A DNA stretch of 64,000 bases, taken from assembly GCF_017348835.2 (NCBI RefSeq), contig NZ_CP071375.1, one strand, 5' to 3'. Source of the stretch: Escherichia coli (GTDB taxonomy: Bacteria; Pseudomonadota; Gammaproteobacteria; Enterobacterales; Enterobacteriaceae). The translations under genes and the position numbers were made by a program. This document shows positions 1,571 to 61,156 of this stretch, piece after piece; positions within the stretch are counted from its first letter, which is position 1, and each line of letters begins with the position of its first letter. Under the pieces are notes generated by a model that saw nothing but the letters and a program-made list of their open reading frames with translations, was not told where the DNA came from and did not search any database.

Positions 1571-4246
1571 ATGTCGTCAACCCTACGAGAAGCCAGTAAG
1601 GACACGTTGCAGGCCAAAGATAAAACTTACCACTACTACAGCCTGCCGCTTGCTGCCAAATCACTGGGCGATATCACCCGTCTACCCAAGTCACTCAAAG
1701 TTTTGCTCGAAAACCTGCTGCGCTGGCAGGATGGTAACTCGGTTACCGAAGAGGATATCCACGCGCTGGCGGGATGGCTGAAAAATGCCCATGCTGACCG
1801 TGAAATTGCCTACCGCCCGGCAAGGGTGCTGATGCAGGACTTTACCGGCGTACCTGCCGTTGTTGATCTCGCTGCAATGCGCGAAGCGGTTAAACGCCTC
1901 GGCGGCGATACTGCAAAGGTTAACCCGCTCTCACCGGTCGACCTGGTCATTGACCACTCGGTGACCGTCGATCGTTTTGGTGATGATGAGGCATTTGAAG
2001 AAAACGTACGCCTGGAAATGGAGCGCAACCACGAACGTTATGTGTTCCTGAAATGGGGAAAGCAGGCGTTCAGTCGGTTTAGCGTCGTGCCGCCAGGCAC
2101 AGGCATTTGCCATCAGGTTAACCTCGAATATCTCGGCAAAGCAGTGTGGAGCGAATTGCAGGACGGTGAATGGATTGCTTATCCGGATACACTCGTTGGT
2201 ACTGACTCGCACACCACTATGATCAACGGCCTTGGCGTGCTGGGGTGGGGCGTGGGTGGCATCGAAGCAGAAGCCGCAATGTTAGGCCAGCCGGTTTCCA
2301 TGCTTATCCCGGACGTAGTGGGCTTTAAACTTACCGGAAAATTACGTGAAGGTATTACCGCCACAGACCTGGTTCTCACTGTTACCCAAATGCTGCGCAA
2401 ACATGGCGTGGTGGGGAAATTCGTCGAATTTTATGGTGATGGTCTGGATTCACTACCGTTGGCGGATCGCGCCACCATTGCCAATATGTCGCCAGAATAT
2501 GGTGCCACCTGTGGCTTCTTCCCGATCGATGCTGTAACCCTCGATTACATGCGTTTAAGCGGGCGCAGCGAAGATCAGGTCGAGTTGGTCGAAAAATATG
2601 CCAAAGCGCAGGGCATGTGGCGTAACCCGGGCGATGAACCGATTTTTACCAGTACGTTAGAACTGGATATGAATGACGTTGAAGCGAGCCTGGCAGGGCC
2701 TAAACGCCCACAGGATCGCGTTGCACTGCCCGATGTACCAAAAGCATTTGCCGCCAGTAACGAACTGGAAGTGAATGCCACGCATAAAGATCGCCAGCCG
2801 GTCGATTATGTTATGAACGGACATCAGTATCAGTTACCTGATGGCGCTGTGGTCATTGCTGCGATAACCTCGTGCACCAACACCTCTAACCCAAGTGTGC
2901 TGATGGCCGCAGGCTTGCTGGCGAAAAAAGCCGTAACTCTTGGCCTCAAGCGGCAACCGTGGGTCAAAGCGTCGCTGGCACCGGGTTCGAAAGTCGTTTC
3001 TGATTATCTGGCAAAAGCGAAACTGACACCGTATCTCGACGAACTGGGGTTTAACCTTGTGGGATACGGTTGTACCACCTGTATTGGTAACTCTGGGCCG
3101 CTGCCCGATCCTATCGAAACGGCAATCAAAAAAGGCGATTTAACCGTCGGTGCAGTGCTGTCCGGCAACCGTAACTTTGAAGGCCGTATCCATCCGCTGG
3201 TTAAAACTAACTGGCTGGCCTCGCCGCCGCTGGTGGTTGCCTATGCGCTGGCGGGAAATATGAATATCAACCTGGCTTCTGAGCCTATTGGTCATGATCG
3301 TAAAGGCGATCCGGTTTATCTGAAAGATATCTGGCCATCGGCACAAGAAATTGCCCGTGCGGTAGAACAAGTCTCCACAGAAATGTTCCGCAAAGAGTAC
3401 GCAGAAGTTTTTGAAGGCACAGCAGAGTGGAAGGAAATTAACGTCACACGATCCGATACCTACGGCTGGCAGGAGGATTCAACCTATATTCGCTTATCGC
3501 CTTTCTTTGATGAAATGCAGGCAACACCAGCACCCGTGGAAGATATTCACGGTGCACGGATCCTCGCAATGCTGGGGGATTCAGTCACCACTGACCATAT
3601 CTCTCCGGCGGGCAGTATTAAGCCCGACAGCCCGGCAGGTCGATATCTACAAGGTCGGGGTGTTGAGCGGAAAGACTTTAACTCCTACGGTTCGCGGCGT
3701 GGTAACCATGAAGTGATGATGCGCGGCACCTTCGCCAATATTCGCATCCGTAATGAAATGGTGCCTGGCGTTGAAGGGGGGATGACGCGGCATTTACCTG
3801 ACAGCGACGTAGTCTCTATCTATGATGCCGCGATGCGCTATAAGCAGGAGCAAACGCCGCTGGCGGTGATTGCCGGGAAAGAGTATGGATCAGGCTCCAG
3901 CCGTGACTGGGCGGCAAAAGGTCCGCGTCTGCTTGGTATTCGTGTGGTGATTGCCGAATCGTTTGAACGAATTCACCGTTCGAATTTAATTGGCATGGGC
4001 ATCCTGCCGCTGGAATTTCCGCAAGGCGTAACGCGTAAAACGTTAGGGCTAACCGGGGAAGAGAAGATTGATATTGGCGATCTGCAAAACCTACAACCCG
4101 GCGCGACGGTTCCGGTGACGCTTACGCGCGCGGATGGTAGCCAGGAAGTCGTACCCTGCCGTTGTCGTATCGACACCGCGACGGAGTTGACCTACTACCA
4201 GAACGACGGCATTTTGCATTATGTCATTCGTAATATGTTGAAGTAA
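1571..4246 (+). CDS. acnA: aconitate hydratase A (891 aa)
   Basis: full-length ORF with AGGAGG RBS; aconitase family sequence recognised (e.g. [15 protein letters not shown]). Confidence 0.97.
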
Positions 4247-8727: not shown

Positions 8728-8754
8728 AAAAGCCACGGATATATCCGTGGCTTT
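8728..8754. terminator. stem-loop after yciH (AAAGCCACGGA-TATA-TCCGTGGCTTT), between convergent yciH and osmB
   Basis: 11-bp perfect inverted repeat with 4-nt loop, 4 nt after yciH stop. Confidence 0.5.
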
Positions 8755-9067: not shown

Positions 9068-9335
9068 AATACTCTCTCCTGAATTTATGATTCACGGAAG
9101 TAAGCTCTCTATAACTATAATAGCTAAGAATAAGCATGGTGAAATTATTCCGTGAAATCCGTTCGCGCGCAGGGTTATATCACGCAGGTGATAATGACTT
9201 CCTGTTATATCGCTGATAATAATTTTATATCTTAAGAGTGTTAATAACAGGTAAATAGTCTTAATTATCAACCAGGAATCATCTTAGAGCGGATGATTTG
9301 CCAAACTGCAAATCATCCGTAGAGAAGGGAAATGG

Positions 9336-27489: not shown

Positions 27490-28441
27490 ACCATTCCTTA
27501 TGTTTCAGAGGGTTAGCCATGGCACCCAAAATATCAGAAATCACGTTAACAATAATGACCAGTGAGCCACACACCATCACTCCGGCGGAAATGGCTGCGT
27601 AATCCTGCTGGCGGATGGCGTTAATTAACCAGCGCCCTAAACCCGGCCAGCTAAAAACCATTTCGGTGATCATCGCCAGCGTCAGCATGGTGGAAAACTG
27701 TAAGCCCAGGCGAGGAATAACCGGCGGTAACGCGTTATGCAGAACGTGGCGACGCAAAATAGTAAAGCGCGACAAACCACGGGTCGCCGCCGCTTTTACA
27801 TAGTTCTGGTCATACACTTCGATAGTGCTGATACGCATCAGGCGGATCACTTCAGTTGTTGGCGCAACCGACAGGGTGATCACGGGCAATATCATATGGC
27901 GGATTGCGCTCATGATCATTTCATCCCGCCATGGTGAGTCCGAAAGCCAGGCATCAATCAACGCAAAACCGGTAATCGGTTTCACTTCGTAGAGCAGATC
28001 GAAACGCCCTGAAACGGGCAACCAACCTAGCGTGAGTGAACAAAACAGCGTCAACAGAAGCGCCAGCCAGAACACCGGGATTGAAAAGCCCAGCAAGGCG
28101 ATGGCGTTGATCAAGTTATCCTGCCACTTATGGCGCGTAATCCCGGCAATCATCCCCACGGGGATGCCAACAATCAGCGCAAAACCGAAGGCGAGGATGC
28201 ACAGTTCCATCGTCGCCGGGAAGACCTCTTTTAACTGTTCGGCAATTGGTTGACCGTTAATGCTGGAAACACCAAAATCCCAGTGGATCAGGCCGTTAAA
28301 CCAGAACACCCAGGCATTCCACAGTGACGCGCCTTGTAACGGCGCGTGTGGAGTGAAATAGCTCAAGCTGAAGCCAACGAAGGTCAGCAGGAACAAGGTG
28401 ACAATCAATAACAAAATGCGGCGTAAGGTGAAGATAATCAT
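27476..28441 (-). CDS. sapB: peptide ABC transporter permease SapB (321 aa)
   Basis: ABC permease; 4-nt overlap with sapA stop. Confidence 0.95.
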
Positions 28442-30081
28442 GGTTTTTTCACCTCATCCTGTTTCTCGCGATACACCCCAGCAAAGGAGGCGTTACCAAA
28501 CGGGCTAAGTACCAGACCTTTGATATCGTACCGATAGGCCTGCAAACGCAATGACGACGCCAGCGGCAGAATAGGTAATTCCTGCGCCAGAATACTTTGC
28601 GCTTCGTCATAGGCTTCAATACGCGCCGCCAGCTGCTGCGAAGAGAGCGCCTTACGCAATACGCTGTCGAATTTCGGATCGCACCAGTGGGCGAGGTTGG
28701 TCTGCGAATGAATTGCCGCGCAGCTCAGTAACGGACGGAAGAAACTGTCCGGGTCGTTACTGTCCGTCGCCCAACCGGATAACGTCAGATCATGGCTCAT
28801 ATCCATCAACCGCGCCTCCTGGAAGCGACCTTCTACCGGCACAATCACCACTTTTACGCCAACCTGCGCCATATCCGCCTGAATCAGTTCGGCAGTTTTC
28901 AGTGGACTGGGGTTCCACGCCTGCGAACGTGTTGGCACCCACAGTTTCAGCGTTAAATTTTCCAGCCCCAACGACTTCAACTGTTCGCGCGATTTCGCCG
29001 GATTGTATTCAGTAATTTTAGCCTCGTTGTCATAGGCCCACGAGGCGCGCGGTAAAATAGAGGCCGCTGTTTCAGCCGTACCATAATAGATGGATTGCAT
29101 CAGGCGCTGGTTATTAATCGCCAGTGCCAGCGCATGGCGGACAGCGGGATTATTTAGCGGCGGTTTGGCGGTGTTAAATGCCAGATAGGCGACGTTCATC
29201 CCAGGACGCAGCGTTAAACGCAAGCGCGGGTCGTCACGCAAAATGGATAGCTGGCTGGCAGCAGGCCAGGCCAGAACGTCGCATTCCCCGGTCAGGAGTT
29301 TCGACAGACGTCCGGTGCCGCCGGAGCCTAAATCCACCACCACCTGCGGCATTAACGGTTTACCGCGCCAGAAGTCATCATGACGTTGTAGGCGAATAAA
29401 TTGCCCGGCGCGGTATTCCGACAACTGATATGGCCCAGTGCCGACCGGTTGACGGTCGAGTTGCTCCTGGCGATCTTCTTTCTCTAACTTCCGGGCATAT
29501 TCTGCCGACATGACCGAAGCATAATGGGTTGCGAGGTGCCACAAAAAAGAAGCATCCGGCTGAGCCAGACGGAACTCAACGGTATGATTATCCAGTTTAC
29601 GGACGCTTTTCACGTTATCGGCAAATTGCAGGCTGTCGAAGTAGGGGAAGTTGCTGCCGTTGACGTTATGCCACGGGTTGTTGCGGTCAAAAATTCGCTG
29701 GAAGGTAAACACCACATCGTCGGCATTCATTTTACGAGTGGGAGTAAACCAGTCGGTTTTTTGAAACGGAACATCGCGACGTAGGTGGAAGCGATAGGTC
29801 GCGCCGTTGTCGAGTACTTCCCAGCTTTCGGCAAGTTCTGGCATCAGGCGATAGGTATAGGGATCGACATCCAGCAGTCGATCATAAAACTGGGCGGCAA
29901 GGGTATCGACAATTAACCCACTGCTCGCTTTGGATGGGTTAAAGGTGTTGACTTGCCCGCTGACGCAATAGACAAAACCGCTGTCGCGGATATCAACATG
30001 CGGGGGGGATTCAGGCGCGGCGATTGCCTGACCACTCACAAGTCCAGCAATCACCAAAAGAGACGATAATACCTGGCGCAT
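28438..30081 (-). CDS. sapA: periplasmic peptide-binding protein SapA (547 aa)
   Basis: signal peptide; family 5 solute-binding protein; first gene of sapABCDF. Confidence 0.95.
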
Positions 30082-30185
30082 AATATTAAGGGATTTTATG
30101 TAAAGAGGCTATCTTACTAATATTTAATGACATTTGCCATTACCGTTTGTGTTCAGGGGTCGTAATGAGGGCCGTGTGGTTGGTC

Positions 30186-30216
30186 GTTGAACAGATGGCG
30201 TCGCCATCTGTTCAAC
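30186..30216. repeat. 31-bp perfect palindrome (GTTGAACAGATGGCG-T-CGCCATCTGTTCAAC) in the ymjA-sapA intergenic region
   Basis: 15-bp perfect inverted repeat arms with a single central base; about 105 bp upstream of sapA start. Confidence 0.6.
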
Positions 30217-30329
30217 ATTCGTACCCGTGATTTCTCTATAACTATAACTCACAGAACAACTTAGCGAGGAGCAGAGCGGTACGATCGTGAGAAACCCATT
30301 AAAGCCCGCTGCAGTGCGTGTCATTGTTA

Positions 30330-30358
30330 GCCGGATGCGGTGTGAACGCTTTATCCGG
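30330..30358. repeat. REP-like element (CCGGATGCGG...TTATCCGG)
   Basis: matches the enterobacterial REP palindrome pattern. Confidence 0.5.
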
Positions 30359-30393
30359 ACAACGATACTGACCGATCGTCTGCAATTAAATAA

Positions 30394-30639
30394 TTACTCA
30401 TTACCCCATTGATTCAAAAACTCTGCGATCTCATCAATGCGTACGGGATTAATCCCCGCTTCAGCAGCCATTTCATGTTGGGCTTCTTCGCTGATCTCTT
30501 CATTGTTCATCAAACGGGTGAGCAGTAACTGGAAGTAGTGGGCCAGAGGTGTGCGTTCAGCGTCTGCGACAGGCTCTGCGCATTCGGTCGCGTACTCATC
30601 GGCAATATCAAAATATTTTAGCGGGATATCGTGGTTCAT
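30394..30639 (-). CDS. ymjA: YmjA, DUF2543 protein (81 aa)
   Basis: ORF track; synteny between sapA and puuP. Confidence 0.85.
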
Positions 30640-30772
30640 TATTTGCCCCTGGGGTTAATGCGCTAAGCATAAGGGCGGATGATAGCACTCGTGATCCGGG
30701 TCATACATCTTTTTATAGTTAATGGCGCGGTGCATTACCCTCAGGCAGGATAATGCGCCGCGCATCCGACTA

Positions 30773-32158
30773 TTACGTTTCGCTCACCGGTGTTCTGTCG
30801 CCATCATACAACGGCACTTTGCGATAGCGGCGGATCAGATACCATAAATATGCGCCGCCTAACGAAGCCCATACCAGACCGAGTGTCAGTGACGTTGACT
30901 CGAGGTTAACCCACAGCACACCAACCGTCAGCGCGCCAACCAGCGGCATCAGCAAATAGTGGAAGTGATCCTTCCAGCTTTTATTCATTCCTTTACGCCG
31001 CCAGAAATGATTAAACACCGACAGATTCACGAAGGTAAACGCCACCAGAGCACCGAAGTTAATTAACGCTGTGGCGGTAACTAAATCGAAGAACAGCGCC
31101 GACAACGCGACAATCCCGACCATAATGACGTTCAGTGCCGGAGTCCGCCATTTTGGGTGCACATAGCCAAACACGCGCTCCGGAAACACATTGTCACGCC
31201 CCATCACATACAGCAGACGCGACACGCTGGCATGTGAAGCCAGGCCAGACGCTAACGTGTTCACAAACGTGGTGCAGAGGAAAATCGACTGGAAGAGCTT
31301 GCCGCCGACGTACAGCGCAATTTCAGGCAGTGCGGCATCCGGATCTTTAAAGCGGCTGATATCGGGAAAGAACAGTTGCATAAAGAACGACGCAGCGATA
31401 AAGATAACGCCGCCGTATACCGCCGTCAGGAAGATGGCTTTCGGGATCACGCGTGCGGCGTCCGGCGTCTCTTCCGAAAGCGTGGTCACCGCATCGAAAC
31501 CAAGGAAAGAGAAACAGACAATTGTCGCCCCGGTTATAATCGGGATCAGGTGCGCGTTCTCGCTGATAAACGGCTGAAGTGACCAGACGGTGCCTACGCC
31601 TTCTCCTTTATGCAGTCCCTGAACCACCAGGAAGATAAACACCACCATGATGGAGATTTGCACCAGTACAAACAGGGTATTGAAGTTAGCAACCAGATTG
31701 ACGCTCTTCAGGTTCGCGGCGGTTAAAATGGCGACGAAGGTTACCACCCACACCCACGGCGGCACTTCCGGGAAGAGGGCGGAGAGATAGATTTTCGCCA
31801 ACAAGACGTTAATCATCGGCAAAAAGAGATAATCCAGCAGTGATGACCAGCCGACCATAAAGCCGACGTGCGGGTTAATCGACTTTTGCGCGTAGGTATA
31901 GGCCGAACCGGCCTCCGGAAACTGGCGAACCAGTTTGCCGTAGCTGATAGCGGTAAACAGCACACCCGCCAGCGCCAGCAAATAGGACGCCGGAACGTGA
32001 CCGTCGCTAATGCCTGACACAATGCCAAAAGTATCGAACACAGTCATCGGCGTGAGATAGGCCAGACCCATCATTACCACCTGCCACAATTTCAGTGATT
32101 TTCGCAGACGGGTTTTGCCGGGTTGCGCAGCAATATTCAGTGGTGAATTAATAGCCAT
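30773..32158 (-). CDS. puuP: putrescine importer PuuP, APC family (461 aa from MAINSPLN start; ORF track extends to 32212)
   Basis: 12-TM amino acid/polyamine permease; synteny with puu cluster. Confidence 0.92.
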
Positions 32159-32446
32159 AATTGCTGCCTCCCCTGCGTAATAAGGTTTGCGGTCGTGTCG
32201 ACCTGAAATCAAACCTGTTTAGCAAGGGAAGCAAAGGGGGCGGAGTCCAGTCAGTAGCAGGAGGGGCGCATACGCAACCTCCCTCGCCATGCGGGGATTT
32301 AATCATCGGCATCATCTCATTTCCTCGTCACAGTCTTAATCGTTAACGGAAGCCCGTTGCCGCCTGCGCTCCATAACGCGACATCCGGGAAATGTCTGGA
32401 TTACCAGCAAATGTCAGGCCTGGCTCCGCTCAGGCCGATGAAACAA

Positions 32447-39688: not shown

Positions 39689-39770
39689 TGCCTGATACGC
39701 TGCGCTTATCAGACCTGCAAACGACGTATTGATTATGTATGCCGGATAAGGCGTTCACGCCGCATCCGGC
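39689..39770. repeat. pair of REP elements (BIME-like) between puuE and pspF (GCCTGATACGCTGCGCTTATCAG... and GCCGGATAAGGCGTTCACGCCGCATCCGGC)
   Basis: both match the canonical enterobacterial REP palindrome types. Confidence 0.75.
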
Positions 39771-61121: not shown

Positions 61122-61156
61122 AATATGCCTGATGGTGCAACACCATCAGGCATATT
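61122..61156. terminator. bidirectional stem-loop between convergent tyrR and tpx (AATATGCCTGATGGTG-CAA-CACCATCAGGCATATT)
   Basis: 16-bp perfect inverted repeat with 3-nt loop. Confidence 0.6.

Follow-up and report, generated by a model that had tools for sequence, protein, structure and literature searches.

The steady-state 3′ ends found on Rho-dependent Escherichia coli transcripts carry a stable stem-loop with reduced U and, downstream of it, an excess of C over G (Dar and Sorek, 2018; PMC6061677). In this class the hairpin blocks 3′-to-5′ exonucleases and a rut site lies just downstream (NAR 46:6797; PMC6061677). A 31-bp perfect palindrome between ymjA and sapA, in the 64-kb stretch of E. 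coli DNA analyzed here (the window), resembles these stem-loops in that it is stable, has neither a U-rich tail nor an upstream A-tract, is followed by a C-over-G tract, and lies downstream of a gene (ymjA) without an intrinsic terminator. It differs from them in its distance of 177 nt from the ymjA stop codon, in the REP element that lies between, and in being unconserved outside E. coli.

The symmetry of the palindrome has a second close parallel in quasipalindromes, which are reportedly corrected to perfect inverted repeats by template switching during replication, as Ripley in 1982 and Dutra and Lovett in 2006 are said to have described. Imperfect repeats are hotspots for template-switch events that raise the complementarity of their arms (Klaric et al., 2020; PMC7202029), and in Proteobacteria such correction apparently maintains perfect repeats (Lavi et al., 2018; PMC5941160). 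At the ymjA-sapA locus, likewise, related species have the repeat in imperfect form, both derived substitutions turn a mismatch into a Watson-Crick pair, and local haplotypes with the perfect allele are scattered in a patchy way; as points of difference, the steps are of single bases, which ordinary mutation could also produce, and other lineages lose complementarity. Two more kinds of described element invite comparison. Like canonical intrinsic terminators, the palindrome forms a stem-loop that is G+C-rich near its loop and lies downstream of a gene, as do the other long palindromes of the window, but a U-tract is missing from both strands, and the stop codon is far away. With REP/BIME sequences it shares an intergenic position, the capacity to form a hairpin and a genuine REP as neighbor, while being single-copy, unlike the REP consensus and present at this locus only.

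A hairpin-forming repeat between ymjA and sapA

The palindrome reads GTTGAACAGATGGCG-T-CGCCATCTGTTCAAC, with perfect 15+1+15 symmetry, and is separated from the sapA ATG by 105 nt (Table 1). Both the sequence and the coordinates agree with the earlier note, which had placed it about 105 bp upstream of sapA and downstream of ymjA. Since ymjA and sapA are both encoded on the minus strand, the palindrome is transcribed in the sense direction, and the reading that matters biologically is its reverse complement. Folding of the 51-nt RNA has a free energy of −25.7 kcal/mol (z = −7.5), that of the 31-mer RNA by itself −21.8 kcal/mol, and that of the single-stranded DNA −15.5 kcal/mol (z = −6.2). In 30 first-order Markov sequences of 64 kb with the composition of the window, the longest perfect arms with a spacer of up to 3 nt measured 9-12 nt, and half of the sequences had none of at least 9 nt; a palindrome with 15-nt arms is therefore not a product of chance.

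Table 1. Coordinates of the features discussed, numbered along the window.
Feature	Position	Strand	Description
sapA	28438-30081	−	
ymjA	30394-30639	−	
puuP	30773-32212	−	
Perfect palindrome, 31 bp	30186-30216	−	14-bp stem and 3-nt loop on the transcribed strand, GUUGAACAGAUGGCG-A-CGCCAUCUGUUCAAC
ymjA-proximal (5′) arm	30202-30216	−	Sequence conserved across Escherichia
sapA-proximal (3′) arm	30186-30200	−	Hypervariable
C-rich, G-poor tract	30121-30198	−	Candidate Rho-utilization region; starts in the 3′ arm and runs downstream
21-codon uORF	30153-30218	−	MLNRWRRHLFNDQPHGPHYDP, ending CCC-UGA; spans palindrome and C-rich tract
Reported sapA TSS	30229	−	TSS of Kim et al. (2012) mapped to the window; weak, 2 reads
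Tandem −10-like hexamers TATAGT and TATAGA	30235-30246	−	Just upstream of the TSS at 30229
Predicted proximal sapA promoter ATGGCA-18-TAAGAT	30111-30140	−	Lenient scan, 8/12
REP element	30330-30359	+	Between ymjA and palindrome; 3 mismatches to the canonical REP sequence
Perfect palindrome	8729-8754		13+0+13; at most about 20 nt from an ORF end
Perfect palindrome	9290-9319		12+6+12; at most about 20 nt from an ORF end
Perfect palindrome	61122-61156		16+3+16; between convergent ORFs, at most about 20 nt from an ORF end

Of 5,426 complete E. coli genomes, 5,421 have the 312-bp spacer between ymjA and sapA exactly once, and no feature is annotated within it, the curated MG1655 record included. 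A 43-nt query centered on the palindrome found matches at one locus per genome only; the second "place" in each genome is the palindrome matching itself on the opposite strand, and this disappears in strains with an imperfect copy. Within the 64-kb window there are no further copies and no isolated half-sites, no phage matches were found, and the five plasmid matches are chromosomes or large chromosomal fragments filed as plasmids. Given a single locus per genome and no phage or genuine plasmid matches, a dispersed repeat of the REP, ERIC or MITE type can be set aside, and with it the repeat-family reading that the earlier note had named as a check on its own. The palindrome is a real, non-random, single-copy hairpin-forming repeat, of a kind already known.

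The 14-bp stem supplies the stable, G+C-containing stem-loop of an intrinsic terminator, but the 8 nt past it (minus strand, GACCAACC; plus strand, ATTCGTAC) provide no U-rich tract directly 3′ of the stem in either direction, and a scan of 29900-30800 for terminators and for the sigma-70 consensus returned no terminator-like or promoter-like site. The judgment of the earlier note that this is not a canonical intrinsic terminator was thus sound, as was its recognition of a REP-like element nearby, which is real. An Rfam scan of 29000-31500 with E-values up to 10 gave no family overlapping the palindrome; the nearest matches are sub-threshold hits to naRNA4, which is REP-derived, at 30293-30381. 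A REP copy without mismatch is found at 39741-39770 of the window. The genomes of two Escherichia species (loci L006 and L009) have a ymjA-sapA spacer without REP, in which a short hairpin followed by TTTCTT lies close to ymjA and is possibly an older terminator of that gene.

The window contains three more perfect palindromes whose arms are 12 nt or longer, and these look like ordinary, partly bidirectional terminators; the sapA palindrome is out of the ordinary only by its distance from ymjA. The gene order puuP, ymjA, sapA of the window agrees with the RefSeq annotation of matching genomes. In strains Eco889 (L105) and S1-THA-01-A (L109) the puu putrescine-utilization cluster is missing (locus positions 2094-3043), and ymjA is followed by a 108-bp remnant of puuP, annotated as a pseudogene, and then by pspF. 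In E. coli ET245 (L108, locus positions 1-1402) sapA itself is annotated as a frameshifted pseudogene.

A candidate Rho-dependent 3′ end downstream of ymjA

The tract that follows the palindrome is the most C-rich, G-poor stretch of the spacer. Between 30198 and 30121 there are 25 C and 11 G in 78 nt, a C/G ratio of 2.27 that ranks in the top 0.55% when every 78-nt segment of the 64-kb window is scored on both strands; the 40-mer 30193-30154 contains 17 C and 6 G. Both hallmarks of the Rho-dependent class, a stable stem-loop with reduced downstream U and a C-over-G (rut-like) enrichment directly downstream, are found here (Dar and Sorek, 2018). Because a stable stem-loop lacking a U-tail and followed by C over G is the signature of that class, we tentatively propose, by analogy, that the palindrome may well belong among the U-tract-less stem-loops with which Rho-terminated transcripts end at 3′, formed by a Rho stop and trimming back to the hairpin. 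Rho would stop read-through RNA from ymjA, plus any RNA from a weak distal sapA promoter, downstream of the C-rich tract; 3′-to-5′ exonucleases would then trim the RNA back to the foot of the hairpin, and the core promoter of sapA would be insulated from ymjA transcription. The Rho stop and the trimming are the steps that we infer in this scheme.

A TSS with 94 reads and a 31-nt UTR is listed for ymjA (Kim et al., 2012; PMC3415461, Table S1), and scans found no intrinsic terminator for ymjA before sapA. So strong a start with no intrinsic terminator ahead of sapA supports Rho-dependent 3′-end formation at the palindrome, and further support comes from the hairpin remaining significant in other E. 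coli, with z-scores for the 51-nt RNA fold of −4.0 for the majority allele and −3.1 for K-12. Three observations argue against the proposal. There are no compensatory changes in the stem, and the sequences of E. albertii and E. whittamii fold like shuffled ones (see below); the REP element, being nearer to ymjA, could equally be the 3′ stabilizer of the ymjA transcript; and the hairpin lies 177 nt past the ymjA stop codon, while the other perfect palindromes of the window are within about 20 nt of ORF ends. No entries for ymjA or sapA were found in the accessible parts of the supplements of Adams 2021, TERMITe 2025, SMRT-Cappable-seq and Cappable-seq, and a text search for bicyclomycin read-through data at ymjA-sapA returned none. 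If the hairpin is a Rho-dependent end of ymjA, it adds one more case to the class described, and the proposal would account for the insulation of sapA from ymjA, the gene with the stronger transcription.

Overall, the palindrome is most likely an ordinary RNA hairpin without a U-tract and not the binding site of a regulator. Since transcription of ymjA and of sapA would both include the element in sense orientation, it may plausibly act at the RNA level.

Allelic variation and the origin of the perfect symmetry

The exact 31-mer, that is, the perfect allele, occurs in 744 of 5,426 complete E. coli genomes (13.7%), with many O157:H7 strains among the matches listed. The transcribed strand has a 5′ arm, GTTGAACAGATGGCG, that hardly changes between strains, and variation is found in the 3′ arm: where the window has CGCCAUC, the majority of E. 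coli have CGCCACC, which leaves an A·C mismatch, and K-12 has CGUCACC, so that its stem contains a G·U pair in addition to the A·C mismatch. In strain N96 the 3′ arm reads AACCACCUGAACAAC, with five changes. Representatives of six Escherichia species from a species-level genome collection, E. albertii and E. whittamii included, carry between 1 and 6 mismatches in the 3′ arm, and none has the perfect form. The perfect allele is thus a derived minority allele of the lineage of this strain and not a trait of the species.

The polarity of the changes was read from two positions of the 3′ arm. At 30195 the window has T, while most E. coli and every other Escherichia species sampled have C; at 30190 E. 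coli has T and the four more distant Escherichia species have G. The derived states at 30190 and 30195 are the two that make the repeat perfect. The outgroup right (3′) arm, CGCCACCTGTGCAAC, pairs at 13 of 15 positions, and since C at 30195 is found in all of these species and G at 30190 in the distant four, the inferred ancestor paired at 13 of 15 positions too, with a stability of about −12.6 kcal/mol. From this repeat, symmetry was perfected in two steps, T replacing first the G at 30190 and later the C at 30195, as would follow from quasipalindrome template-switch mutation or from simple transitions. In a local haplotype tree built from 1.9 kb of flanking sequence, the perfect allele is found on at least three haplotypes, interleaved with strains that have an imperfect allele, and the basal E. 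coli lineages all carry C at 30195; this patchy distribution is compatible with recurrent mutation or with short-patch recombination, the divergence being too low to choose between them.

The locus therefore has the marks of a quasipalindrome, being imperfect in relatives and having derived changes that raise the complementarity of the arms, and the two substitutions possibly had a templated origin. As the locus was picked for being perfect, the corrective nature of its last two substitutions is not independent evidence, and an argument from the neutral probability of two corrective substitutions was dropped on account of this ascertainment bias. The perfection of the repeat is best explained by mutation and not by selection, and the symmetry as such has no function. 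Even a perfect palindrome as striking as this can be an allele of recent origin, at strain level, of a repeat that is otherwise imperfect and unconserved, so that perfection taken alone says little in favor of a protein-binding site. With intermediates still segregating in E. coli, the locus could be used as an example from nature of how a quasipalindrome is perfected step by step.

The two arms differ sharply in their conservation. Mean pairwise difference reaches 0.230 in the 3′ arm, as against 0.077 in the 5′ arm, and is as low as 0.021 over the 75 nt that adjoin sapA; 5 of 15 columns are variable in the 5′ arm against 12 of 15 in the 3′ arm, which makes the sapA-proximal arm the most variable segment of the leader. 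When 10 distinct Escherichia sequences are compared, compensatory change is seen at 0 of 15 pairs, and 8 of 15 depart by disruption only; the paired fraction is 80.7%, a value that 477 of 500 shuffles equal or exceed, and the pair 30195-30207 is intact in one of the 10 sequences. For the whole 148-nt leader RNAalifold put the covariation term at +0.07 and found compensation at 0 of 33 pairs, and the 51-nt RNA fold has a z-score of +0.1 in E. albertii and −0.35 in E. whittamii, indistinguishable from shuffled sequence. A selected hairpin would show compensation and none is seen, which argues against a conserved structured RNA; there is no sign of selection on structure. The inverted repeat is confined to Escherichia and is strong only in E. 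coli. As the hairpin is not conserved, any function must be E. coli-specific or dispensable.

Several changes in the sapA-proximal arm are clusters of multiple bases (N96, L007 and L010), and in N96 a TT-to-AA change gives rise to CCTGAACA, which forms an 8-nt direct repeat with a conserved sequence farther downstream, CCCCTGAACAC. An antisense RNA was also considered, since plus-strand RNA folds slightly better in most variants; the difference arises because transitions give G·U pairs, the independent events are few, the interval from sapA to puuD has no TSS listed for the plus strand (Kim et al., 2012; PMC3415461), and the candidate was rejected.

A somewhat less probable reading, but one of serious weight, is that the hairpin has no effect on expression and that an imperfect inverted repeat, drifting in a weakly constrained spacer, became perfect by chance mutation in one group of E. 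coli lineages, whether through quasipalindrome template switching or two ordinary substitutions. The lack of covariation, the high variability of the 3′ arm and the absence of significant folding in E. albertii and E. whittamii are consistent with such drift, as are natural alleles in which severe disruption of the stem is tolerated (N96, −7.5 kcal/mol; Eco889, −11.2 kcal/mol), and template-switch correction is a known neutral path to perfect repeats (PMC5941160; PMC7202029). Neutral drift accounts less readily for the conservation of the 5′ arm and the flanking blocks, for the significant stability that the hairpin keeps in the great majority of E. coli genomes, and for the unusually C-rich tract directly after it, a pairing like that of known functional architecture.

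Promoters, leader and upstream regions of sapA

The TSS reported for sapA (1355282, minus strand) has 2 reads, which is the noise floor of the table concerned, a 5′ UTR of 148 nt and an upstream sequence that ends in GTTATAGTTATAGAGAAATC (Kim et al., 2012; PMC3415461, Table S1). If this 2-read start holds, the palindrome occupies +14 to +44 of a 148-nt leader. The TATAGT and TATAGA hexamers are nearly invariant across Escherichia, and TCGCTA-15-TATAGT scores 8/12; both overlapping hexamers are made up by a tandem direct repeat, GTTATA-GTTATA-G, at 30235-30248 on the minus strand. The predicted proximal promoter lies inside the sole block in common with the sapA upstream regions of Klebsiella (blastn, 87% over 31 nt). 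If this promoter, with a predicted start at about 30104, is the main one, the palindrome has its center about 97 nt upstream of that start and owes its transcription chiefly to RNA that reads through from ymjA. A further promoter, ATGACA-15-TTTAAT, was predicted under an RpoD SELEX peak by Shimada et al. (2014); at 30298-30324 on the minus strand, it is a pattern match that is unconserved in other Escherichia, and it was rejected.

With the start at 30229, the stem-loop could be a cis-acting element of the sapA 5′ leader that affects mRNA stability or premature Rho termination, perhaps coupled to a uORF. This is unlikely. The reported start does adjoin two −10-like hexamers conserved across the genus, and a 21-codon uORF and a C-rich tract are present, but the start is at the noise floor, a proximal promoter conserved with Klebsiella is at least as plausible, and the structure shows no covariation. 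A hairpin that protects a 5′ end must, as Emory, Bouvet and Belasco reportedly showed in 1992, sit within a few nucleotides of that end. Here 13 unpaired nucleotides separate the weak TSS from the stem, a single-stranded 5′ tail that does not suit a stabilizer of the ompA type. The frame and length of the uORF are kept in four Escherichia species; in Eco889, S1-THA-01-A and L006 it ends after 3 codons, in the O145 strain L005 it has a frameshift, and its substitutions are mostly non-synonymous, so that a conserved peptide is ruled out.

The earlier note had named first the binding site of a dimeric regulator; a DNA operator of this sort, at which a dimeric transcription factor would control sapA, we consider very improbable. 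Perfect symmetry close to the sapA promoters, a TGT-N3-AC motif in each arm, and good conservation of the 5′ arm and the sequence just upstream would suit such a site. A symmetric operator, however, needs both arms conserved, and in the orthologous promoters the half-sites are not conserved together (0.077 against 0.230), the 3′ arm being hypervariable and the perfect form being restricted to 13.7% of E. coli strains and to none of the six Escherichia species representatives. The 15 contiguous complementary bases that run through the center are moreover atypical of operators, and this unbroken complementarity has the look of a hairpin. No listing of transcription-factor SELEX or ChIP data was found to include the spacer: a full-text search for ymjA returned sigma-factor SELEX tables only, the spacer appearing in the RpoD holoenzyme SELEX alone and in no transcription-factor dataset. 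The 12 mentions of ymjA in a Topo IV paper refer to a linked kan marker only and were discounted.

Least probable of all, and hardly to be expected, is that hairpin, C-rich tract and uORF with its Pro-UGA end form an E. coli-specific, translation-gated Rho attenuator of sapABCDF, resembling the leader-peptide Rho attenuators tnaC and speFL, in which a ribosome on the uORF would mask the rut-like tract and so let transcription from the distal promoter or from ymjA read-through continue into sapA. SapBCDF has been reported as a putrescine exporter, and the sap operon adjoins the puu putrescine-utilization genes.

Outside Escherichia the setting of sapA changes. Adjacency of ymjA to sapA is limited to Escherichia (6 of 80 species loci), and in Salmonella, Citrobacter, Enterobacter, Kluyvera and Leclercia the region upstream of sapA is unrelated to that of E. 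coli, the upstream neighbor in these five genera being pspF, a DUF3828 gene or an AraC-family gene. Klebsiella has only the 31-nt promoter-proximal block in common with Escherichia. A counterpart hairpin in K. oxytoca (−9.1 kcal/mol) was rejected, as it is represented by one distinct sequence and its alignment is without BLAST support. When the loci of other genera (L086-L096) are set beside 30082-30260 of the window, the sapA upstream regions of Enterobacteriaceae fall into two unrelated types: that of Salmonella, Citrobacter, Enterobacter, Kluyvera and Leclercia contains GAAGTGCGATACACTTTGCAGATCG, and the type found in Escherichia and Klebsiella differs from it. In and around the Escherichia-Klebsiella block (30109-30139) there is an invariant small inverted repeat, TAATGGCAAATGTCATTA, at 30125-30142 on the minus strand, which overlaps the predicted proximal promoter ATGGCA-18-TAAGAT and is a better candidate than the palindrome for a conserved regulatory site of sapA.
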